DNA of 64,000 nt from Candidatus Eiseniibacteriota bacterium (GTDB lineage Bacteria; Eisenbacteria; RBG-16-71-46). Of the stretch, positions 96 to 12,636 are shown piece after piece (within the stretch, counting starts at the first letter, position 1; each line of letters starts with the position of its first letter). The DNA is taken from NCBI GenBank assembly GCA_963707915.1, contig OY970178.1:768001-832000 (forward strand). The letters are read 5' to 3'. The position numbers and the translations under genes are program-made. The notes under the pieces were generated by a model. That model had not been told where the DNA came from. It ran no database searches and worked only from the letters and a program-made list of their open reading frames with translations.

Positions 96-1863
96 ATGAG
101 CAAGACCCAAGTTGCGAGCCAGAACCGCTCGCTCCCGAAGGCCGCGACCGGCATCGCGGGACTCGACGAAATCACCGGCGGCGGCCTGCCGCGCGGCCGG
201 CCGACGCTCGTCAGCGGCAGGGCCGGCTGCGGCAAGACCCTCTTCGCGATGGAGTTCCTGGTCCGCGGCGCGACCGCAATTCGGCGAGCCCGGCGTGTTC
301 ATGGCCTTCGAGGAGACCGCCGAGGAACTGACCCAGAACGTCCGCTCCCTCGGCTTCGATCTCGACGAGCTCGTCGCACGGAAGAAGCTGCTGATCGACT
401 ACGTCCGCGTCGAGCGCAGCGAGATCGAGGAGACCGGCGAGTACGATCTCGGAAGGCCTGTTCGTCCGCCTGGGTCACGCCATCGACATCGATCGGCGCC
501 AAGCGCGTCGTGCTCGACACCATCGAGGCGCTCTTCGCCGGACTGTCCAACTCCGGCGCGTCCTGCGCGCCGAGCTGCGCCGGCTGTTCCGCTGGCTCAA
601 GGACAAGGGCGTCACGGCGGTCATCACCGGCGAGCGCGGCGACGGCACGCTCACCCGCCACGGTCTCGAGGAGTACGTCTCCGACTGCGTCATCGTGCTC
701 GACCACCGGGTCACCGAGCAGCTCTCGACCCGCCGGCTGCGCATCGTCAAGTACCGCGGCTCGGTCCACGGCACGAACGAGTACCCGTTCCTGATCGACG
801 AGGACGGCATCTCCGTCCTGCCCATCACCTCGCTCGGCCTCAAGCACGAGGCCTCGACGGAACGGATCTCCACCGGGGTTCCCCGCCTCGACGCCATGCT
901 CGGCGGCAAGGGCTTCTACCGCGGCAGCAGCGTGCTGGTCTCCGGAACCGCGGGCACGCGGCAAGACGAGCCTCGCGGCGCACTTCGCCGACGCGGCCTG
1001 CCGGCGGGGCGAGCGCTGCCTCTACTTCGCCTTCGAGGAGTCCGAGAGCCAGATCGTCCGCAACATGCGCTCGATCGGCCTCGACCTGATGCCCTGGCTG
1101 AAGAAGCGGCGTGCTTCGCCTCCACGCCACGCGGCCCACGGCCTACGGTCTCGAGACGCACCTCGCCGCGCTCCACAAGCTGGTGGGCGAGTTCGAGCCC
1201 AGGGTGGTGATCGTGGACCCCATCACCAACTTCCTGAAGGCGGGCACCCACGTGGAGGCCGAAGCGATGCTCATGCGTCTCATCGACTTCCTCAAGGCCC
1301 GGCAGGTCACCGCGGTCTTCACGAGCCTGACGCTCGGCGGCGGCATCCAGGAGCAGACCGACATCGGCATATCGTCGCTCACCGACACCTGGCTGCTGCT
1401 GCGCGACATCGAGCTGGGCGGCGAGCGCAACCGCGCCATGTACGTCCTCAAGTCCCGCGGCATGGCCCACTCCAACCAGATCCGGGAGTTCCTCCTGACG
1501 GATCACGGCGTCGAGCTCAAGGACGTGTACGTCGGTCCGGAGGGAGTGCTCACCGGATCCATGCGCATGGCACAGGAGGCGCGCGAGAAGGCCGCGGCGC
1601 TCGGCCGGCTGGAGGAGATCGGCCGGCGCCAGCGCGACCTGGATCACAAGCGCCAGGCCCTCGAGGCCGGGATCACGGCGCAGCGCGCCCGGTTCGCGGC
1701 GGAGGCGGAAGATCTCGAGTTGCTCATCTCCCAGGACCAGGCCGCCGCCGGCCGCGCGGCCGAGGGACGCGAGAAGCTGGCGCACAGCCGCAAGGCCGAC
1801 GAGCCGGTCCATGGAGCAGGCAACGGTTCCCGAAAGACCCCCAGATCGGGAGGACGCAAGTAA
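96..1863 (+). CDS. kaiC: Circadian clock ATPase KaiC (KaiC2-like), broken by about 6 frameshifts in this sequence
   Basis: Pieces in alternating frames: [31 protein letters not shown] (Walker A), [20 protein letters not shown], second P-loop SGTAGT(G)[25 protein letters not shown]. Apparent extra bases near 276, 451, 487, 558, 959 and 1107. Confidence 0.92.
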
Positions 1864-2222
1864 TGCACGACCAAAGCAAGCCGCAGGCCCTGGAGACGTT
1901 GGACGACTCCGCGCAGGTGGACCCGAATATCTGGGAGCTCCGACTGTACGTCGCGGGCAAGACGGCGCGATCCGTCGCCGCGCTGGAGAACCTCACCAGG
2001 CTCTGCGAGGAGCACCTCCCCGGCAAGTACCGGATCGAAGTGGTCGACCTGCTGGTCCACCCGAAGCTGGCCGAAGGCGACCAGATCATCGCGATCCCCA
2101 CATTGGTCCGCAAGCTGCCGCAGCCGATCCGCAAGGTGATCGGCGACCTGTCGAATACCGAGCGCACGCTGGTCGGACTTGCAGCTGCGTCCGTCCAAAT
2201 CGTAGTCACGCCGGTGCGATGA
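1863..2222 (+). CDS. kaiB: Circadian clock protein KaiB
   Basis: ATG overlaps the kaiC stop (TAATG). Motifs [19 protein letters not shown] and [23 protein letters not shown]. Removing one base near 2178 gives the end [11 protein letters not shown] at 2205. Confidence 0.93.
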
Positions 2223-2317
2223 ATCGACCGCAGCCCGGGTGCCGGCAGCCCGTCCAGGGTCTGCGAATGCAACGACAGGCAATGAGGCGATCGTCCGACA
2301 CCGTCCGAGACTCCGCC

Positions 2318-3975
2318 ATGAACGCCCACACCATCGAGGAGTTGCAGCTGGAGAACCAGCGACTGCGTCACCGGCTGGCGGAGGCCGAGGACGCGCTCCG
2401 TGCGCTCCGCGCGGGGGAAGTGGACGCGGTCGTCGTGGGCACCGATGGCCCGCAGGTCTACACGCTGGATGCCGCCGGCAAGCCCTATCAACTGTTGGTC
2501 GAGCAGATGCCCCAGGCCGCCGCTTCGTTCACGATGGACGGGGTCATCCTGCACGGCAACAGCCGCTTCGCCAGCCTCCTCGGACGACCTCTCGAGATGC
2601 TGGTCGGCAAGCCGATCTACGACTTCCTGGCCGACGAGAGCCGTGCCCCCTTCGCGTCCCTGCTGCGAGATGTCCAGGCCGCCGAGGTTCAGGCAGAAGT
2701 GATCCTGCGACGGGCGGACGGCACGCTGATACCCGCATACCTCGGCATCAACGCGTTGCGTGAAGGCCCGCTCGGCGTATGCCTGGTGGTCACTGATCTG
2801 ACCGAGCAGAAGCATTATGCCGAGTTGAAGCTCGCGCAGGAGGCCTTGCGAGAGGCCGACCGTCGCAAGAACGAGTTCGTCGCCATTCTCGCCCACGAGC
2901 TGCGCAATCCCCTGGGCCCGATTCGCAATGCGGCGCGCATCCTGAAGCTCAAGGGGGCCCTGGCCCCGGAGTTCAGGGTTCCGATCGAGATGATCGAACG
3001 GCAAACGGAACAACTGGCCCGGCTGCTTGATGACCTTCTCGATGTGTCCCGCATCACGCGCGGTGCGCTGGAGATGCGTCGAGACCGCGTCGTGATCTCG
3101 GGCATCGTCGAGGCATCGGTGGATGCCTGCCGTGAAGAACTGCTGCAGCGAGGAGTCGACCTGCGCGTGAGCCTTCCCGCCGAACACACCGAGCTTGTGG
3201 CGGACCGCGCCCGTCTCATTCAACTGCTCTGCAACCTGATCACGAACGCGGCAAAGTACACCCCATCGGGCGGGCATATCGAACTCACGGTAACAGCAAG
3301 CGACGGGATCCTGAGGACTTCCGTGAAGGACAACGGCCTGGGCATCCCCCCCGAGAGGTTGACGGATATCTTCGAACTCTTCGCGCAAGTGGACCGCTCG
3401 TCTGAACGGTCAGGAGGCCTCGGCATCGGACTCACGCTGGTTCGTCAGATCGCCACGCTCCACAATGGCAGCATCGAGGCGCGAAGCGGGGGGATTGGCC
3501 ACGGCAGCGAGTTCATCCTGACATTGCCCATTGCGGCCGCTACGGCGGCGGCGCCGGCAATGGCTCCCGTTCGGGCCCCGCGGCTGCGCCGAGACGCGTT
3601 CTGGTCGTGGACGACAACCGTGACGCGGTCGAGAGCCTGGCAATGCTGCTTGAAGTCGCCGGGCACGAGGTCCACTCTGCACTCGACGGGGATGCAGCCA
3701 TTGCCCTGGCCCAGGAATGCCGGCCAGACGTCGTACTTCTCGACCTCGGGATGCCCAAGGTCAGCGGCTACGAAGTGGCCCGGCGCATTCGCGAGCATCC
3801 TTGGGGCAAGAAGATCTATCTGGTGGCACTGTCGGGCTGGGGCCAGGCGGACGACAGGATGCATACGCAGGAAGCGGGCTTCGATGCCCATCTCGTCAAG
3901 CCAGTTGCTCCAGAAGCTCTCGAGCAACTTCTCAAGACGATGAACGCCCGACCGACTAGTCCCGCCTCAGCCTGA
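2318..3975 (+). CDS. PAS-domain hybrid histidine kinase with C-terminal receiver domain (frameshift near 3580-3600)
   Basis: Coiled coil, PAS, H-box EFVAILAHELRNPL, N-box NLITNAAKYT, G-boxes DNGLGI and GGLGIGL. Receiver VLVVDDNRD...LLDLGMP...KPV lies in another frame (ORF 3607-3975). Confidence 0.88.
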
Positions 3976-4204
3976 GCCTTGATCACAGCACCTCCCATTG
4001 GAGATCTGCTCCGCGATGCGCTGGTTGGTCTCGAGGCCGACCCCGAATCCCTGATCGCCGCTCCAGCCGGTGGAAGGGGTGAGGGCAACATGTAGCACCC
4101 ACATCGGCCTTAGTTCGTGAGGCTAGACATGTGCGCACCGTCTACCCGACCGCGTGCCTGATTACTTCCGCGCGCGATGAAGTCGTGCTAGCGTGTTGCC
4201 GCAC

Positions 4205-4241
4205 GGCCCCGCAGCTCAGACGGATAGAGCAGCGGTTTCCT
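4205..4241 (+). repeat. 5'-half copy of tRNA-Arg(CCT), putative att site, interrupted by an IS at the anticodon loop
   Basis: GGCCCCGCAGCTCAGACGGATAGAGCAGCGGTTTCCT matches 9712-9748 at 36/37 nt. The match continues with AA at 5672-5673 once the IS is removed. Confidence 0.9.
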
Positions 4242-4261
4242 TCTGTGAAGCGGCCGCCCCT

Positions 4262-4532
4262 GTCAAGCGCGATGTGCGGGTACGTCGTTCTTGAGTGGAT
4301 GGTTCCAGTGGCCTCCTCCTGCTGTGGAGCCAGCCCGGCGTTGTCCTCGGCGAGGTTCCTCACCCTTCTGTCCGCGCTCTTCAGTGGCGGCCCGCAGGCT
4401 GCCGGCGCAAGAGGATCGTGCGATGGGGCGGAGGCGCCATCTAATGAACGGCCTCGACTGCAGCCATAGGAAACTACGCGCTCATCCGCCCCTTGTTCGT
4501 GAACGTCGCCCAGGGATGGAGATGATTCGCCG
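4262..4532 (-). ncRNA. Candidate bridge/seek RNA in the IS1111 right end
   Basis: Stem 4425-4432/4485-4492 closes an internal loop with GUUUCCUA (4474-4467) and UUAG (4444-4441), which match the insertion target. ACAGAAG (4371-4365) matches the donor junction. Boundaries are approximate. Confidence 0.7.
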
Positions 4533-5570
4533 TCACGCGACGTCGGCCTGCAGGCGTGACCGTCGCTCTGCCTTGCCGAACTCGGTCTCATCGCGCCACA
4601 TCGCGAACAGGATCCCGGCCAGCTTTCGAGCTAGAGCCACGATGGCGATGCGCTGACCACGACGCAGTGCGATGCGCTGTGCCCACAACCTCAACTCCTC
4701 CGTGCGCGAGTGCCGCGATCGGAGGATCGACCAGGCTGCCTCGACCAGCAGCCAGCGCAGACGGGTGTTGCCGGTCTTGGTGATAGCTCCGCGTTGCTGA
4801 CGTTCGCCGGAACTGAACTCGCTCGGGACCAGCCCGAGGTAGGCCTGGACCTGGTGTGCGCCTTCGAACCGCTGGACTAGATCGAGCGTCGAGACGAACG
4901 CCACCGCGGTCACCGGCCCGATGCCGGGCGCCGTGCACAAACGTTGCACGACCGGGTCCCCATCGACGATCTGTTCGATCGCCCGCTCGACGACCAGCAT
5001 CTCTCGGTTCACGCTATCCATCACGGCCCGCAGAGGCGCGATGATGTCGTGCAACCACTGCGGCGTTTCGATCTCGTCCATGCGCTTGCCGAAGCTCGAA
5101 GCCTGGCCGCTGCGCACGCGCAGGCCCTCGCGGCGGAGCAGCGCGCGCACGACCTGGATCTGCCGCACCCGTGTGCGGACCAGGTTGTCGCGCACGGTCA
5201 GCAGGGTTCGCACGCGTCGCTGGGGCTCTGAGGTGCGGTGCGCCCCGCGGTAGGCGCCGAGCCGGCAAGCATCCATCAGCGCTTGAGCGTCCCGGCGGTC
5301 CGTCTTCACCCGGCGGCTGCGAGTGGCGTACATCGGCGCGAAGTTGGGATCCGCCACGATCACCTCGTGCCCCAGCTCCTCGAGGCAGCGGGCGACCCAT
5401 TCGCTCTCGGTCGAGGCCTCGATCAGGATGCGGGCCCGTGGGCGCTTGCCCAACGCCTCAGCGAACCGGTCGTGACGTGTCAGGATGCGCCGCTCGACAA
5501 TCTCGCCGTCATTGCTGAGCCGACAGATTTGACTTTCATTCTTGTGGACGTCGATGCCAATATACTCCAT
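4533..5570 (-). CDS. IS110-family DEDD recombinase/transposase
   Basis: MEYIGIDVHK start, IEAS, KTDRRDA, APGIGPVTA, AYLGLVPSEFSSG (catalytic Ser region), ITKTGNTRLRWLLVEAAW, VALARKLA. Confidence 0.96.
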   Translation of the reverse strand: MEYIGIDVHKNESQICRLSNDGEIVERRILTRHDRFAEALGKRPRARILIEASTESEWVARCLEELGHEVIVADPNFAPMYATRSRRVKTDRRDAQALMDACRLGAYRGAHRTSEPQRRVRTLLTVRDNLVRTRVRQIQVVRALLRREGLRVRSGQASSFGKRMDEIETPQWLHDIIAPLRAVMDSVNREMLVVERAIEQIVDGDPVVQRLCTAPGIGPVTAVAFVSTLDLVQRFEGAHQVQAYLGLVPSEFSSGERQQRGAITKTGNTRLRWLLVEAAWSILRSRHSRTEELRLWAQRIALRRGQRIAIVALARKLAGILFAMWRDETEFGKAERRSRLQADVA

Positions 5571-5927
5571 GGCTGACCTCCCAGTTCTTGCGGCTCTGAC
5601 CGCGTTGAACATCCTGTGGACCCGGCAACGGGTACCACGTCAGGCTGGGGGTCAGCCGCTTCATCTCATCTAACGCGGGACCGCATGAATACAGGGTGAA
5701 ATGGGCCTTGCGGCCTAGCAGGCGACGCGCGTACTACTTAGCATGAGCCCCAACGGTCTAGATTCCGTTGGGGCTCGTGCTGTCTCGAGACTGGAAGAGA
5801 CGGCTCGGGACCTGAAAGGACGCTGAGACCGGGACCACACCGGGACCAGACAAGTGCTGACACGGACGGCGGGCGGGCTGGCGCTCCGTGAGAGCATGGA
5901 CGTAGGTGGACGGCTCAATCTTGGCGC

Positions 5928-6581
5928 ATGGGCATGAAGACCGGAGGACACGTGGCGGGCGCATCGCGAGGACGGTACTCATTGGGGGCTCTCAGGGGCC
6001 ACACGGAGCACATTCGCATCAAGTCTCGGCGAAAGCTCCGGGGAACCAGTCCTGAGCTAGATGAGGCGTTTGCCGTCCTCGCGCGGTTCATTGGGGAGCT
6101 TGAGGGGCTGCCCCGCTGCCTAGCTCCGAACGTCCACTTGCTCTTGTCGTGCCGCTTCATGAATCAAGTTTACGCTGCGCTCCTTCTGGCGGAATCGGGC
6201 CTCTTCGCAGAAGCAGCGATCTGCGAACGGGCGGCGATCGAAACGCTCTCGGCGGCGAAGCTCCTGCAGGTCAATCCGTCGATTGAGCAGCAGTACGAGA
6301 GTGGGCGGTTCCTGAAACCAGTTGAAGTGCGCAAAGAGCTGGAACGGCTCGGCTACCCTGAAGAAGTGGAGTGCCTACGAGGGCTCTACGGCGTCACGAG
6401 TGATGTGATGCACGTATCACGTGCGGCTGAGAGGTGGAGCACGAAGTGGCTCTCAGCCGATGAAGGGACGCTTCTGCTCGGCGGGAAGTACTCGCATACA
6501 GACCTGGAGAGCTTCACAGGGGTGCTGGTGACACTGACGCGTTGGTTCGCATCTGATCTGGAGAGCAATGCGAAGCAGTAA
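5928..6581 (+). CDS. Hypothetical protein, DUF5677-like helical family (tentative)
   Basis: 217-aa ORF with R-x3-E (ERAAIE) and Y-x3-S-x3-H (LYGVTSDVMH) patterns. Start uncertain. Confidence 0.6.
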   Translation: MGMKTGGHVAGASRGRYSLGALRGHTEHIRIKSRRKLRGTSPELDEAFAVLARFIGELEGLPRCLAPNVHLLLSCRFMNQVYAALLLAESGLFAEAAICERAAIETLSAAKLLQVNPSIEQQYESGRFLKPVEVRKELERLGYPEEVECLRGLYGVTSDVMHVSRAAERWSTKWLSADEGTLLLGGKYSHTDLESFTGVLVTLTRWFASDLESNAKQ

Positions 6582-6748
6582 CATGGGGCAGCACCCGCTG
6601 CCTGGACGGGGGAGTCCGAGGCCTCTACGCGGCCTGGTGTCTCACTTGGCAACGCGCCCAGGCTGCACGAGCTTCGTGAGAATGGGCCAGAATGGGCGGT
6701 CTCGGGCATCGGAGCACATTCGAAGGGAGGGTGACAGCCGTGGCCCCC

Positions 6749-7195
6749 ATGTGGACTGACATCGTGCAGGCTTTGGGAGCTATCGGCACGCTACTGGTTG
6801 CGGTCGTCGGGTTCTGCTTCGTTGTTCGGCAACTGACGCAACTGGAGCGTCAGATCAGAGGCACGACGCATAGCGCGCTTTACGGCCAGGGCTTCGATCT
6901 GATGCAGTCGTTGGCCGCGACGCCGGAGTTGAGGTCGTACTTCTTCGACAATGAGGCCCTACCTGATGACCCTCATCTCAAGGCGAAGGTGTTGATCGCT
7001 GCCGAGACGGTTCTCGACTTTCACGAGCACGTCGCGGTTCAACGGTCCAACCTCCCTCGGGAGGTGTTCGCTCGATGGGAGGTATACATCCGGTCGATGC
7101 ACAAGAGCAGCATCGTGCTGCGCAACTACTTGAAGCTCCATCGTGAATGGTATGCGGAGGAGTTGTCCACGTTGCTGGCACATGGAGGTGATTAG
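6749..7195 (+). CDS. Hypothetical protein with N-terminal transmembrane helix
   Basis: MWTDIVQALGAIGTLLVAVVGFCFVVRQL hydrophobic start followed by a helical domain. Confidence 0.7.
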   Translation: MWTDIVQALGAIGTLLVAVVGFCFVVRQLTQLERQIRGTTHSALYGQGFDLMQSLAATPELRSYFFDNEALPDDPHLKAKVLIAAETVLDFHEHVAVQRSNLPREVFARWEVYIRSMHKSSIVLRNYLKLHREWYAEELSTLLAHGGD

Positions 7196-7430
7196 CCCGA
7201 CCGTCCCGGGATGGGCCTAGCGAGGTGGAGGGGAGAGGCGTCGCCGAGGGCGCGGATAGCACTTGCTCGACCGCGCGTCGAGATGCGACCCCCTTGGCCT
7301 GAGTGCGCAGAACTCGAAGTCAGGGGACGGTGGCGGACGAGCACGACAGGGGCAGAGTGGACTCTGAGCGACGGATGGGAGGGGTTGGCGGCAGTAGGTG
7401 AACGGTACGGGACCGGAGGGGGGCGAGACC

Positions 7431-8003
7431 ATGAGACTGACGGGGGCAACGGCGGTCGTGGTGGCGACGCTGCTGGGGGCGGTCGTTACGGGCGACGCGC
7501 GGGCCACTGAGGAGTCCCCGCTAGAGGTCGCGCAACCGATCTGGTGCGAGAACGGCGTCGTCGTCTCGACCGTCACGGTCATTGTGATGAGAGGATCGGC
7601 GTGGCCAGGACTTGCGGTTGCGTGGACGGCAAAGCCGAACTTCGTACAGCGAGAAGGGAACGATGCGCCGCTCAGTCGAAACGCGGCAGCGATGTACGGG
7701 ATCGAGGTGAAGGTGTTGGAGGGGCGAGGTTGGCCGAGCCAGGCCTTCTCCTATGCCGACACGCTGGACACGCTGAATGTAGTCCTGGATCTTCGGAGGC
7801 TGAATCCAGGCGCCTCCTACTTGGCTGATTCGCTGGTGGTGGAGGCCACGGTGGAGTGCATCCTGACGAACGCAGGGCATGATCAACCATCGGCCCGCCA
7901 CGTGAATCTGACCGTCGAGGGGTCGCAGCGTTATGCCTACCTCCAACGGGTGTACCCGCTGGGCGACTATCGGACGCTTCCTCGACGTCGGGCCTTTGAC
8001 TAG
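7431..8003 (+). CDS. Secreted hypothetical protein
   Basis: GGAGG upstream of ATG. Signal peptide MRLTGATAVVVATLLGAVVTGDARA. Confidence 0.7.
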   Translation: MRLTGATAVVVATLLGAVVTGDARATEESPLEVAQPIWCENGVVVSTVTVIVMRGSAWPGLAVAWTAKPNFVQREGNDAPLSRNAAAMYGIEVKVLEGRGWPSQAFSYADTLDTLNVVLDLRRLNPGASYLADSLVVEATVECILTNAGHDQPSARHVNLTVEGSQRYAYLQRVYPLGDYRTLPRRRAFD

Positions 8004-8491
8004 GCGGGCCGTGGCCCGCCGGAGGATGTGACGGCGGGGTGGCTCGCACGATGCCGCGCAGGTCGAGACGCGATTCCCTTGGGAGACTCGAAGCGTTGAT
8101 TCGAGAGCACGAGCCCGCGTTAGTCCTGCTGGATGTGGATGAGGCGCCAAGCGAGGCGGGGCAGATGAAGGCGAATGCCTTGTGCAGGCGGCTGAACGTG
8201 GCGTTGCTGTTCTTCGTGGGGCAACGCGGGCCGGATGGGCGGGTCGTGGACCCCGGGAAGGGCCCCGCGTCGCGCGGCCGACTCTGCTTGGCTTACTCTG
8301 CCGGCCGGGCGAACTTCCGTTTCACGCGAACGTCCACCATCCGCCGGATGGCCGGGCAAGCTATGCGACCCCACTCCATTCTCCGAAACATGATCGCACG
8401 GAATTCCTGCCGCCATGATAGGCTTGAGTCGTTTCGCGTTCAGGGGAACGCCTGAGTCCCCGTCACTTTGCGGTTAGAGGAGGCCGCCGCC

Positions 8492-9067
8492 ATGCGAACC
8501 AGCCCTGCTCTGATTGCAGCCCTGCTCCTTCTGCTGTCGGCGCCCGCGGGTGCGGACGTGTTCGAGATTCCGCTTCCCGAATTGGCGTGGACCTACGGAC
8601 CACAAAGTCCCGACCCGCGGACTGTCACGTTCCACCTTCCTGGCATTCCAGCCGTCATTCACGGCGCGTCCTTGCGTGTTCGAGGCACGACCGAAGTAGG
8701 CATCGTCCGCTGTGACCCCCCGCGTGGGGATTACCCCTGGGTGCCCTCTACCCTGGGCGAGATGTTCGCCGGGCCGGAGCAGTATTGGACCAGCCAAGCC
8801 ACGAATCCGCCGGTGGCCGGAGCGTTCGAGATGGTCACCCCGTTCGTGTTCCTTTCGTTCGACCACACCCCCGCGAATTGGACCTTCCTGGCCGACGGAG
8901 AGGGCACGATCTGGTTTTACGGGGCCATGGTGAGCGAAGTTCTCGATTGCATCTACTTGAATCCTCCATCGGTCACCGTGACGGAGGCCACGCTGATCTT
9001 CGACGCGGACTTTCTCGTGCCGACCCAAGCCCAGTCCTGGGGACGAATCAAGGCCGCGTACCGCTGA
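8492..9067 (+). CDS. Secreted protein with C-terminal SWGRIKAAYR motif
   Basis: GAGGAGG RBS, signal peptide ending AGA, C-terminus VPTQAQSWGRIKAAYR. Confidence 0.85.
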   Translation: MRTSPALIAALLLLLSAPAGADVFEIPLPELAWTYGPQSPDPRTVTFHLPGIPAVIHGASLRVRGTTEVGIVRCDPPRGDYPWVPSTLGEMFAGPEQYWTSQATNPPVAGAFEMVTPFVFLSFDHTPANWTFLADGEGTIWFYGAMVSEVLDCIYLNPPSVTVTEATLIFDADFLVPTQAQSWGRIKAAYR

Positions 9068-9225
9068 TTGTTCGTCGCGCCTGGAAGCACATCGCGTCGG
9101 CCGTGACGGGCGTGGCGCCCATCCTCCCTTGGCTAAAGTAAGGAAAACCAAAAATGAAGGGACTGGAAGGGATAACCGGGTAGGGTGGTTCAGTTTCCCC
9201 TTGACAAGTCGGGCAGTGGACGCCC

Positions 9226-9651
9226 GTGAAGAGCAAGCTGTACGCGGGTGAGACGCTCCTAGGCACGCTGACGCCATCGGGGCCACCTGCCGCGGGGTTC
9301 TGGGCCTCATACACATTCGACCCTGAATCGGCGTTTGAAGCCTACCGGGCGACACTGGCGGGGGTGAGTCGGTCGGAGCTTGATTGGGTCCAGGCCAGTG
9401 AGGATCCTGCCGCCATGTTCGCGGAGGTGGCTGCCGCTGCCGACAGGCGTTGGGCAGCAGCGGAGAAGCTGAACCTCCGGATGGTCACAGAGGGGTGGCC
9501 GGACAGTTTGCTCACGTGGATTCTCATCGATGGTAACCGCGCAACCGTGCGGGGCGCGCACCTGCGTTTCGAAGCAAAGGGGAATCCGGGCAGCGGCGAG
9601 GTCTCTGAGACCGGCACCAAGACCGGCACCAGACCCGGAGAGAGAGGTTGA
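9226..9651 (+). CDS. Hypothetical protein
   Basis: 141-aa GTG ORF with protein-like composition. Its tail runs into the tandem repeat. Confidence 0.5.
   Translation: MKSKLYAGETLLGTLTPSGPPAAGFWASYTFDPESAFEAYRATLAGVSRSELDWVQASEDPAAMFAEVAAAADRRWAAAEKLNLRMVTEGWPDSLLTWILIDGNRATVRGAHLRFEAKGNPGSGEVSETGTKTGTRPGERG
9608..9631 (+). repeat. Perfect 12-bp tandem repeat AGACCGGCACCA x2, possible integrase arm-type sites
   Basis: Units at 9608-9619 and 9620-9631, then a partial GACC, about 80 bp upstream of the tRNA. Confidence 0.6.
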
Positions 9652-9711
9652 GGGGATGCCGTTGGCGAGTTGCGTAAGTCGAAGCGTGCAAGCGATAGTG
9701 GCCCGCGTTGT

Positions 9712-9788
9712 GGCCCCGTAGCTCAGACGGATAGAGCAGCGGTTTCCTAAACCGCGTGCCGCAGGTTCGACTCCTGCCGGGGCCACCA
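9712..9788 (+). tRNA. tRNA-Arg (anticodon CCT)
   Basis: Acceptor GGCCCCG/CGGGGCC, anticodon arm GCGGT-TTCCTAA-ACCGC, T-loop GGTTCGACTCC, encoded CCA. Confidence 0.97.
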
Positions 9789-9914
9789 CGCTGCAGCGGC
9801 TTCGCCTTCACGCGACGCCCGATTGAGTGCGCCGCCCAACGCATCGGCGAGGATGGATCGCGCTCGCGACCAGCGGGGAAGGCTTGGCGCGGCCCGCGGC
9901 ACCGCGCGCGTCGG

Positions 9915-11030
9915 CTACTTCGTCGCGCCCGGCAGGCCCCGGCCGGTGACCAGGTAGGTGGCGAAGCTGCCCAGCCAGTGGCCACCCTCGTAGTGCTCAC
10001 CGGTCACGCGCGGGAGCGAGGCCTCGCGGTGGCGCCGGGCAAGCGCCAGCAGCCCCGGCCGTCGTGGGTCCGCCTCGGGCAGCCGCGCCGCGATCCCTTC
10101 CGCCATCCACGCCCTCGACAGGTTCAGGCCATCGAGGTGCGCGAGCTTGGGGTCGCTCGGGTCGGTCACGACGCCCGGCTCGAGCCAGTCGCTGCGGCCA
10201 TCGCGCGGCAACTGCGGCAGGAACGCGTCCAGCCAGCGGGCGAACTCCTTCGGCGGCAGGACACGGCCGACGACGTCCGCCTCCGCCAGGCACGGGGAGA
10301 GGAAGTCCTCGCCCGAGGGCTCGTAGTCGAGCGGGCAGCCGCGGTCGCCGACGTAGAAGCGCTTCACCGCGGCATCGAACACCTCGCCGCTCGCGCTGTC
10401 GCCGACCACTCGTGCCCAGTCGAGCGCCAAGCCGAGCGCGAAGGCGGTCTGGTTGTGCTCGCCGATGCGGATCGGCTCGGTGAGCTTCGGCAGCCACGTC
10501 GTCATCCGCTGCGCGCAGACCCGCGCCAGGGGCGCGACCGCGGCGGCCCACTCGCGCGCCTGCGGGTCGTTCCACTGGACCAGCTCCGCATGCAGTTGCA
10601 GCAGCCAGGCGAGCCCGTAGGGCCGCTCGAACGACGCGCGGCCGGGCGTCTCGAGGTAGCGCAGCTCGACCGCGATCCGCTCCGGCGTCAGGCTCGCGGC
10701 CAGCGCGGCGCGCGCCCGCGGCGCGAAGGGAGCGTCCGGATACCAGCGGGCGAGACGCGCCAGCAACCAGTGGCCGTGCACCGCCGAGTGCCAGTCGAAA
10801 CACCCGTAGAACGCCGGCGTCAGCGTGCGCGGAGGCAGGACGTCCGCGTCGCTGGCGAGCACGTGGGCGAGCTTGTTGGGGTACTCCTGGTGCACGCAGG
10901 CCAGCGCGAGGTCGGCGAACCGCTCGACCGCCGAGGCGGGCAGGGTCTCGGCAGCGCACGCGGGACCGGCGGGCCGGGCCAGCGCCAGCAGGGCGAGGGC
11001 AGTCGCGAGCAAGCGTGCGAGGCGGCGCAT
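9915..11030 (-). CDS. DUF2891 family secreted protein
   Basis: Signal peptide, EYPNK, PAFYGCFDWHSAVHGHW, FERPYGLAW, HLDGLNLSRAW, YEGGHWLGSFA. Confidence 0.9.
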   Translation of the reverse strand: MRRLARLLATALALLALARPAGPACAAETLPASAVERFADLALACVHQEYPNKLAHVLASDADVLPPRTLTPAFYGCFDWHSAVHGHWLLARLARWYPDAPFAPRARAALAASLTPERIAVELRYLETPGRASFERPYGLAWLLQLHAELVQWNDPQAREWAAAVAPLARVCAQRMTTWLPKLTEPIRIGEHNQTAFALGLALDWARVVGDSASGEVFDAAVKRFYVGDRGCPLDYEPSGEDFLSPCLAEADVVGRVLPPKEFARWLDAFLPQLPRDGRSDWLEPGVVTDPSDPKLAHLDGLNLSRAWMAEGIAARLPEADPRRPGLLALARRHREASLPRVTGEHYEGGHWLGSFATYLVTGRGLPGATK

Positions 11031-11277
11031 GCGGGCATCATACCCGCGGAACGGCCCCGGGCAAGTCGGTGCGACCCCGGTCCCGGCAGGCCCGCTCGAC
11101 CGTGCCGGGGCCCCCTCGCGTGGTAGCCGTTGGTACCGTTGAGCGGGCCCGCCGGGTGGCGCACAGTCTGAGGCGAAGTCCGTGCGTTCGTCCGGGTTCC
11201 CGCCGAGGAGCCCGTTTCGCGCCCAGCCGCGTGGCCGCGTCCTCTGGGTACCACCTCCACGTTGGAGATGCGACCGA

Positions 11278-12636
11278 ATGACCGTCCCCGCCACGCACAC
11301 CACCGAAGGCGCCGCGCCGGCGCGCCCGAAACCGTCCGCCGGCCTGTTCTCCGAGCGCACCCACCAGCTCGGCACCGAGAACGCCTTCAAGGTCGGTCCG
11401 TACATCAAGGCGATCGAGGACGCCGGCCACCGGGTCATCAAGTGCAATCTCGGCGAGCCCGATTTCCCGCTGCCCCGGCACATCGCCGACGAAGTGAAGC
11501 GCTGCATCGACCTCGACATGACCCACTACGTCGATCCCCAGGGCATCCTGCCGCTGCGCGAGGCGATCGCGGCGCACATGACCCGCACTCGCGGCATCGC
11601 CGTGACGGCCGACCGGGTCGTGGTGTTCCCGGGCGCCAAGCTGCCGATCGGCTTCTGCCAGCAGACCTACTGCAACCCGGGCGACGAAGTGATCTACCCC
11701 AGCCCGGGCTTCCCGATCTACGAGTCGTTCACGTCGTACATGAACACCCGGCCGGTGCCGCTGCACCTGCGCGAGGAAGCGGGCTTCAGCTTCGGGGGTC
11801 GCGAGCTCGAGGCGCTGATCACCCCGCGCACCCGCCTGATCATCCTGAACTTCCCGTCGAATCCCACCGGCGGCGTCGCGACGCGCGACCAGCTCGAGGA
11901 GATCGCCGCGGTCATCCGTCGCAAGGCCCCGCCGCAGACGCGCGTCTACTCGGACGAGGTCTACGAGGACATCCTCTTCGACGGCAACCGGCACCTGAGC
12001 ATCGCCGCGCTGCACGGCATGGCCGGGCGCACCATCATCGTGGGCGGGGTGTCGAAGTCGTACGCCTGGACCGGCGGGCGGCTCGGCTGGGCCGTGATGC
12101 CGACGGCCGAGGAGGCGGCGATCCAGAAGAACCTCAACATCAACTACTTCTCGTGCGTGCCCGCCTACAACCAGATGGGCGCCCGGATCGCGCTCGAATC
12201 GCCCGCGAGCGTGGCGGAGATCGCCCGGATGGGCGCGGCATTCCAGCAGCGGCGCGACGTGATGGTCGCCGGCCTGAACGCCATCCCGGGGATCCGCTGC
12301 AAGACCCCCGGCGGCGCGTTCTACCTGTTCCCCAACATCGGAGCCCTGTGCGAGTCGATCGGCGCGATCGAGGCCCACGCCGGGCTCGCGCCCGCCGTGC
12401 GCGCGCGCACCAGCCCCGCGGGACTGTTCCAGATGTTCCTGTTGTGGCAGCATCACGTCGCGACCCTGGACCGCGGCTCGTTCGGCCGGGTCGGGTCCGA
12501 CGGCCAGCACTACCTCCGTCTGTCCATCGCCACCGGCCTCGAGGACCTCGAGAAGGCGCTCGCGATCATCCGCCGGGCGTCGCTGGACAAGGACGGCTTC
12601 GGCAAATTCGTCCAGGAAGGCAGGCACCTGTGGTAA
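11278..12636 (+). CDS. PLP-dependent aminotransferase class I/II
   Basis: NLGEPDF, GILPLREAIA, NFPSNPTGG, SDEVYE, SKSYAWTGGRLG (PLP lysine), GGAFYLFP. Confidence 0.93.
   Translation: MTVPATHTTEGAAPARPKPSAGLFSERTHQLGTENAFKVGPYIKAIEDAGHRVIKCNLGEPDFPLPRHIADEVKRCIDLDMTHYVDPQGILPLREAIAAHMTRTRGIAVTADRVVVFPGAKLPIGFCQQTYCNPGDEVIYPSPGFPIYESFTSYMNTRPVPLHLREEAGFSFGGRELEALITPRTRLIILNFPSNPTGGVATRDQLEEIAAVIRRKAPPQTRVYSDEVYEDILFDGNRHLSIAALHGMAGRTIIVGGVSKSYAWTGGRLGWAVMPTAEEAAIQKNLNINYFSCVPAYNQMGARIALESPASVAEIARMGAAFQQRRDVMVAGLNAIPGIRCKTPGGAFYLFPNIGALCESIGAIEAHAGLAPAVRARTSPAGLFQMFLLWQHHVATLDRGSFGRVGSDGQHYLRLSIATGLEDLEKALAIIRRASLDKDGFGKFVQEGRHLW

Follow-up and report, generated by a model that had tools for sequence, protein, structure and literature searches.

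Some insertion sequences (ISs) land on a conserved sequence that is made or used by another mobile element: IS4321 and IS5075 home to the terminal repeats of the Tn21 family, and the IS1111-attC group homes to integron attC sites. Integrative islands and prophages with tyrosine integrases use tRNA genes as attB, i.e. the conserved anticodon-loop region, shared by many hosts, serves them as a landing pad. Here we analyze an IS in a 64,000-nucleotide stretch (the window) of a Candidatus Eiseniibacteriota genome (GCA_963707915.1, contig OY970178.1, positions 768,001 to 832,000, forward strand), where it splits a partial copy of tRNA-Arg(CCT). It is very probable, judging by sequence comparisons across its family, that the element is an IS1111-group IS with a DEDD recombinase and a two-module bridge/seekRNA targeting GGTTTC-CT-AA, and that its copies persist only in tRNA half-copies. 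Its site differs from those of IS4321/IS5075 and the IS1111-attC group in being a tRNA-derived att scar of islands. It also differs from the tRNA-integrating islands and prophages, in that it brings no replacement part of the tRNA, would inactivate an intact gene, and would recognize its site by RNA pairing.

The closest described systems are the seekRNA-using elements ISEc11, ISKpn4, ISPa11 and ISPst6, which share with the window element a DEDD transposase (330-350 amino acids in the IS1111 group, with the motif GL-P----S(t)G) and subterminal repeats. Their RNA, like that predicted here, is non-coding and lies downstream of the gene, with a match to the top strand 5' of a match to the bottom strand, the two overlapping at the crossover (PMC11187229). 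The window element differs in targeting a tRNA anticodon stem-loop or half-site, that paper being without any mention of tRNA, and in that its RNA is predicted from sequence alone. With IS621 it has in common a homologous recombinase, a bispecific RNA whose target guides are distinct from its donor guides, all of them spanning the core, and a core that reads CT on one strand (PMC11208160; 8wt6). By contrast, the RNA of IS621 lies in the 5' end and that of the window element in the 3' end, the order of the guides is reversed, and the window element has long subterminal repeats, which in the IS1111 group measure 7-17 bp (PMC11208160). Its predicted donor guides, moreover, would flank a stem rather than lie inside one internal loop. 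The element is thus of a known kind, whose natural target class, i.e. tRNA-derived, we did not find in print; our literature search returned no IS1111/IS110 bridge RNA naturally aimed at a tRNA or an att half-site, and supplementary target-logo tables could hold one.

Results

Class membership and insertion site

The coordinates of the features are collected in Table 1. The transposase (P0001) combines an N-terminal DEDD/RuvC-like domain (DEDD_Tnp_IS110, PF01548, 1.5e-15) with a C-terminal Transposase_20 domain (PF02371, 9.3e-25), the pair that marks the IS110 family, and scores 264.6 bits against the NCBIfam model NF033542 'IS110 family RNA-guided transposase' (cutoff 140); its matches in the PDB are distant ones, to the IS621 transposase (E = 3e-18), and to IS621 and ISCro4 at about 1e-17. 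Within the family, assignment to the IS1111 rather than the IS110 group follows from the subterminal inverted repeats, the 3' non-coding layout and the motif GLVPSEFSSG, which separate the two groups. The repeats are 9 bp long and lie 8 nt (core plus head) and 4-6 nt from the ends, the non-coding region is 101 nt long upstream of the gene and 291 nt long downstream of it, and the open reading frame is intact. These features support classification as an IS1111-type IS, the 3' end of which encodes a putative bridge/seekRNA-like RNA.

The element is complete and is present once in the 3.6-Mb genome, which contains neither of its ends a second time. It opens with TCTGTGAAGCGGC and closes with GCCGCTTCATCTCATCT, 1430 bases after the CCT of the half-copy, which it splits between CCT and AA. 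The dinucleotide CT stands at both junctions (4240-4241 and 5670-5671), as does an equal dinucleotide in most relatives, without a long target duplication. Excision of the element in silico restores GGTTTC-CT-AA, exactly as the earlier note on this DNA had claimed. The half-copy, which differs from the intact gene at one of 37 bases, is an attL-type scar left by island integration. ARAGORN detected no tRNA in the rebuilt empty site and did detect the control gene; excision thus yields no tRNA gene.

Table 1. Positions in the window of the element, its predicted RNA segments and the tRNA-derived sequences beside it
Feature	Position	Strand	Basis
tRNA-Arg(CCT) 5' half-copy, tRNA positions 1-37	4205..4241	+	97% over 37 nt to the tRNA-Arg(cct) of the genome
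Right-end copy of the core dinucleotide, CT (AG when read in transposase orientation)	4240..4241	.	matching dinucleotide at both junctions
IS1111-type insertion sequence, 1430 bp	4242..5671	-	ends, relatives, copy count
Right end: subterminal inverted repeat GCCGCTTCA (4254-4246), with the tail CAGA (4 nt, 4245-4242) beyond it	4242..4254	-	family ends
TTGACA, -35-like hexamer	4261..4266	-	sequence; TTGAC kept at equal distance in relatives
Predicted donor guide D1, GACAGAAGG (ACAGAAG = right-end tail plus core, transposase-strand top-strand sense)	4364..4372	-	covariation
Module-2 stem UGCGCC (4409-4404) : GAGCGCG (4379-4373), enclosing hairpin 4403-4386	4373..4409	-	RNAalifold
Candidate second donor guide D2, CGAUCCUCU	4410..4418	-	complementary, with mismatches, to core and left-end head
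Predicted target-binding module	4425..4492	-	minimum free energy fold, RNAalifold, family alignment
Predicted 3' target guide G2, GUUCAUUAGAUG	4449-4438	-	family alignment
Predicted 5' target guide G1, UAGUUUCCUAU	4476-4466	-	complementarity, covariation
Transposase gene, 345 amino acids (P0001)	4533..5570	-	Pfam, NCBIfam and PDB matches
Left end: head AUGAGA (5669-5664) between the core copy (5671-5670) and the subterminal repeat TGAAGCGGC (5663-5655)	5655..5671	-	family ends
Island-side flank: AA of CCTAA, then non-tRNA DNA	5672..5784	.	about 68-112 nt, including 12-bp hairpin, 76-80% to the flank of L003
Intact tRNA-Arg(CCT)	9712..9788	+	tRNA detection

Two RNA modules conserved across the family

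Relatives were collected by a scan of contigs with one genome per species, which gave 79 loci (L003-L081) of 55-80% identity, and by a metagenome scan, which gave 80 more (L092-L171), i.e. 160 loci including the window, 159 of them homologous to it. Because a MAFFT alignment of the 420-nt downstream regions was too gappy, loci were instead parsed by anchoring on motifs. Both RNA modules could be parsed in 127 of the 160; the other 33 (contig ends, deviant motifs) were left out of all counts. L009 was excluded from the alignment and the outer-stem counts, and L036, which was mis-parsed, from the full-match-length comparison only, being kept in later counts. In transposase orientation the family ends read left flank - core - AUGGGA-UGAAGCGGC ... 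GCCGCUUCA-CAGA - core - right flank, with right-end tails of 2-5 nt and a core that is mostly AG (CT on the opposite strand). Subgroups have GA (L023, L033, L035, L039, L045, L051, L065) or AA (L005, L030, L072, L073), and in these G2 and D1 shift in step with the core.

About 90 nt past the stop codon the parsed loci carry, in order, one arm of an outer stem, GAGCGCG, the 11-nt G1, a GC-rich inner hairpin, G2, GGCGCC and the partner arm of the outer stem. In the window element, on the minus strand, the outer stem pairs GGGGCGGA (4492-4485) with UCCGCCCC (4432-4425), GAGCGCG (4483-4477) pairs with GGCGCC (4438-4433), and the inner hairpin spans 4465-4450; the minimum free energy (MFE) fold of the 3' end shows outer stem, internal loop and inner hairpin. 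The outer stem was recovered by MFE in 106 of 108 distinct target-loop segments, with 77 different arm pairs, scored by per-sequence folds, a fixed-register count having failed with arms offset by 0-1 nt between clades. RNAalifold reported double changes, 9 of them from GC to AU in the GCGC:GCGC pairs and 12 in the inner hairpin.

The family donor module follows, with a second GAGCGCG ~103 nt further on that pairs back to UGCGCC and is succeeded by aACAGAAGG; its hairpin pairs show double compensatory changes in 19-29 sequences by RNAalifold. Directly after the donor guide, at columns 169-180 of alignment A1 (about 4352-4364 of the window, minus strand), nearly all members of the family keep a further motif, GGnUGA followed by a short hairpin ending in CCUCG.

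Guide-junction covariation

For 93 left and 99 right junctions of the 107 aligned sequences, the columns of the alignment were compared with the positions of the junction by mutual information (MI). In G1, complementarity to the right flank is seen at columns 34-37, and the longest contiguous match of the G1 reverse complement to the right junction averages 7.1 nt for the element's own junction, compared with 3.6 nt for non-cognate ones (90 non-redundant loci); a match of at least 7 nt, as in the window element, occurs in 94 of 7092 non-cognate pairs (1.3%). For G2 the contrast is 4.6 (own) versus 2.8 (non-cognate), the compared segment being one base short of the core and the value for the window element itself not meaningful. 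In 77-91% of sequences, G2 columns 66-69 repeat the bases at left-flank positions -4 to -1, and the columns after them repeat the core and the first left-end base (column 73, 92%). A typical full match of G1 in the family comprises one right-end base, the core and 6-8 bases of the flank; for G2 it comprises 5 bases of the flank, the core and 3-4 left-end bases. According to the family alignment the pairing partner is the top strand (transposase strand) for the 5' guide and the bottom strand for the 3' guide; the window element has the same order, which is that of the IS1111-type seekRNAs, with G1 complementary to the top strand and G2 in the sense of that strand.

In the donor module, columns 163 and 165, after the second GAGCGCG, carry the bases of the right-end tail in 96% (MI 0.76) and 98% (MI 0.59) of sequences. 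Corresponding guide/tail pairs in relatives include CAUACAAG with AUACAAGG and CAGAGA with ACAGAGAGA, and also AUAAAAGG. The earlier note had matched ACAGAAG to the element's own circle junction, and these columns confirm it as the predicted donor guide. It had not clearly found a second donor guide. There is now a candidate, D2: for the segment just before UGCGCC, the diagonal for the family shows 83-86% complementarity at positions 3-5 of the left-end head and at the first base of the repeat. Support for D2 is moderate across the family and weak in the window element, where the segment fits with two or three mismatches.

Family-wide covariation thus supports identification of the loop segments as putative target guides, as the earlier note had proposed for the window element, and the loops and flanks covary across the 90 non-redundant loci. 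That the loop merely resembles the target by coincidence, with site choice by the protein only or the element being a dead relic, is disfavoured, and we consider it extremely improbable. The resemblance does amount to only 9-10 contiguous matches, in a single-copy element whose distal 3' guide is unmatched; however, the outer stem is kept with varied arms and own-junction matches exceed non-cognate ones, i.e. the agreement is more than chance. The open reading frame and the ends are, moreover, intact, and, as described below, the same loop occurs at the same site within the subclade and other loops at other sites.

The guides of the window element and the tRNA target

The octamer singled out in the earlier note, GUUUCCUA (4474-4467, minus strand), lies within G1; this and its other coordinates for stem, loop and guides were all exact. 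G1 is complementary to T-AG-GAAAC, i.e. the core and the anticodon stem-loop of tRNA-Arg(CCT), after which A stands opposite C and U opposite G. G2 (..UUAGAUG) has the same sense as the left-flank TT, the core AG and the first three left-end bases ATG, with UUAG at 4444-4441. Overall the match to the tRNA is GTTTC-CT-AA, nine contiguous bp plus two more past one mismatch. The note's proposal of a target loop with a 4-bp right guide holds for the loop; its 4 bp give way to the longer G2 match that is the norm in the family.

The 9-mer GTTTCCTAA occurs uninterrupted once in the genome, in the intact tRNA-Arg(CCT). In a search for perfect matches, GGTTTCCTAATGA was met with in a single genome, G082, among 102 of the order, where it forms a tRNA half-site that is unoccupied; since half-copies are many and the three extra matching bases could be chance, we do not use this as support.

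The closest relatives occupy tRNA-Arg(CCT) halves

By identity, the subclade of the window element comprises L003 (80%) and L092-L096 (79-83%), the next locus, L097, being at 70%. The target module is present in five of these relatives (L003, L092-L095; the contig of L096 stops before it), with G1 being UAGUUUCCUAU, CAGUUUCCUAU or CAGUUUCCUGU, i.e. following the pattern [U/C]AGUUUCCU[A/G]U. In the window and in L003, L093, L094 and L095 (5/5) the right flank is positions 37-1 of tRNA-Arg(CCT), and these five are the only credible matches to tRNAs of this genome among 108 right and 106 left family flanks. Flanks of the other clades gave no credible tRNA match; a 14-nt match of an L028 flank to tRNA-Ser was taken as chance. 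The left flank reads TT-AG, beginning with the AA of CCTAA, in 8/8 cases (seven loci and the 97%-identical X1 contig), and in none of the eight does it go on as ACCGC of the tRNA. Relatives at 70% identity or less (L097, L099, L100 and the rest) have other loops and are sited at other sequences, which match those loops.

These results bear out the earlier note in two respects. The guide appears to be a natural one aimed at a tRNA/att sequence, in that guides and flanks covary and close relatives have the same loop at the same site; nearly identical loops were not found at unrelated sites. Landing in the dispensable half-copy is likewise borne out, in that no left flank carries on as an intact tRNA. 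The reading of this pattern as parasitism of island att sites is a reasonable one, and survivorship explains the same pattern.

With respect to how intact genes come to be spared, we considered whether the 3' guide discriminates attL from the intact gene. Within the subclade, its three variable distal positions agree with the flank at 1, 0, 0, 1, 2 and 1 of 3, which is near the chance level, and such discrimination is thus not supported in general. As the guide-pairing positions are alike in gene and half-copy, the simplest reason for 0/8 insertions in the intact gene is the loss of cells with a broken tRNA, which we infer to be the explanation.

The common location might also reflect hitch-hiking, i.e. 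one ancestral insertion in the attP/attL identity segment of an island, spread since by islands rather than by repeated RNA-guided choice. The left flanks of the window and L003, related over 68-112 nt, have diverged about as far as the IS itself (80%), as such co-transfer would predict, and a crossover upstream of the IS within the att identity segment would carry it into attP. However, the left flanks of L093, L094, L095, L096 and X1 have no detectable similarity to that of the window or to each other, the tRNA-upstream flanks differ too, the guide fits the site, and guides track sites family-wide. We consider hitch-hiking improbable as the explanation; at most it accounts for part of the pattern.

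tRNA halves and the adjacent island

The tRNA 5' half is present in three copies in the genome, i.e. 3.4 kb before the window (G000:C1:764597-764635), at 4205 and in the intact gene; the first of these reads CCC where the others have CCT. Tandem arrays of tRNA-Arg(CCT) 5' halves ending in CCTAA lie beside the intact gene in the relatives G003:C1, G007:C54, G009:C49, G004:C4 and G008:C9, such arrays being a feature of relatives of the same genus and family. Arrays without the window-type IS occur in relatives, and in G082 the half-site ...CCTAATGAAG is unoccupied. The evidence points to the half-copies being of attL type, produced by islands whose integration takes place in the anticodon loop and which supply their own 5' half.

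The 4-kb stretch between the IS and the intact tRNA (5672-9711) is probably a decayed island. Its GC content is 0.60-0.66, compared with 0.70-0.78 past the tRNA, and its open reading frames are small and without a Pfam family, apart from one weak DUF5677 match. No integrase or other recombinase was found in it, which raises the question of whether the recombinase and RNA of the IS are its integration module, the moving unit then being larger than 4242-5671; cargo-bearing IS110 loci have been described in a 2026 preprint (10.64898/2026.08.14.744561). Against such an arrangement, the ends at 4242 and 5671 are canonical and conserved family-wide amid unrelated flanks, and no second copy of the element ends was found at or near the far end of the island, where it borders the intact tRNA (about 9700-9711). 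Within the island and next to it there is a single near-match, a right-end-like string with 2 mismatches at 6199, on the strand opposite to the element's right end, and the remaining end-like matches in the genome (within 2-3 mismatches) are all distant from it. Protein-level comparison with the flanks of relatives gave only about 110-150 nt adjoining the IS in L003, so that little island content is shared, and 5'-half arrays exist in relatives without the IS. A larger moving unit is therefore very unlikely, and we retain the reading of 4242-5671 as the mobile element.

Several other observations concern the surroundings of the element. A 12-bp GC-rich hairpin, GAGCCCCAACGG...CCGTTGGGGCTC, at 5739-5784 is kept in L003 (2291-2360; a metagenome-assembled genome of another lineage), and in L095 and L096 hairpins unrelated to it stand about as far from the IS; these hairpins could terminate transcription of genes of the island or belong to an att arm. 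A short GGACGCTGAGACCGG-like repeat occurs at 5798-5853 and at G000:C1 454977-455009 and 763858-763915, the last copy being just upstream of the first tRNA half-copy. A further IS110-family gene fragment or distant relative is present at G000:C1:258540-258654 (74% over 115 nt). Upstream of the half-copy lies a PAS/HisKA/HATPase histidine kinase gene (1811-3943), and downstream of the tRNA a gene for a DUF2891 protein (9915-11519).

Words nearly identical to those of the stretch were found in 20 runs from 14 studies (sediment, soil, peat and river metagenomes), of which the best-matching may be the source sample; the four runs that were inspected consist of contigs. In one soil study (runs X3 and X19), contigs of a relative, from a DNA and an RNA library, depart from the window sequence at 5658, inside the left subterminal repeat, and run beyond it into unrelated DNA, possibly representing a truncated or rearranged copy.

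Discussion

In the mechanism that we favour, the element would excise as a circle, with the donor guides reading the junction CAGA-AG-AUGAGA. The hexamer GAAGAT, 17 nt past TTGACA, arises only across this junction, and circularization would thereby complete a junction promoter, TTGACA-17-GAAGAT. The recombinase-RNA complex would then pair its target guides with both strands of GGTTTC-CT-AA, and recombination would take place at the CT core. This target would be available in the intact gene as well as in each 5' half-copy that an island integrating at the anticodon loop leaves behind; copies would persist only in the half-copies, because insertion in the gene would destroy the tRNA.

Some of our observations weigh against this account. 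G2 of the window element matches only 2-3 of the 5 flank positions usually matched in the family, the A opposite C at +6 is kept in all six subclade guides, and its core is shifted by one position relative to the register of most of the family. The 291-nt 3' end as a whole folds no better than shuffled sequences (MFE z = -0.12), making the folding energy uninformative; the fold proposed in the earlier note is recovered in its stem, loop and hairpin, without a matching Rfam model. Rfam 15 (E of at most 1, positions 3500-10500) matched only the tRNA, and it may not hold a model for an IS1111-type bridge RNA. The window and L003 have 68-112 nt of left flank in common (76-80%), their left flanks being the only related pair, so that not all of the insertions are independent. 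The element is single-copy, which leaves its activity in this genome putative, and the hint of transcription is weak, consisting of two metatranscriptome contigs from one study (4204-4412 and 4318-4578), with strand unknown and DNA carry-over possible.

It may also be, as a more speculative extension that we hold to be rather unlikely, that this IS lineage specializes on the att scars of islands integrating at tRNA-Arg(CCT) and travels with them, its distal 3' guide being tuned to their junctions and sparing the gene. Were this so, island excision crossing over upstream of the IS would deliver the IS, in place, to the tRNA locus of the next host, and the flank common to the window and L003 would be a trace of co-transfer. 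Variation in the distal 3' guide (GGGUU in L094 versus its flank GGCTT; UCAUU in the window versus ...CCTAATGAAG in G082) would represent junction tuning.

The overall results describe what is likely a natural, well-replicated case of an RNA-guided IS with a guide aimed at a tRNA-derived sequence, the landing pad being universally conserved, and survival being seen only in the non-essential half-copies left by other mobile elements. The family alignment amounts to a covariation map of the target guides, hand-over bases and donor guides in a soil and sediment IS1111 clade, and could seed a covariance model. Insertion with only some 9-10 matches at the centre, the distal guide being unmatched, would provide a test of how much pairing is needed in nature, a requirement that bears on the off-target behaviour of bridge recombinases as genome-writing tools.

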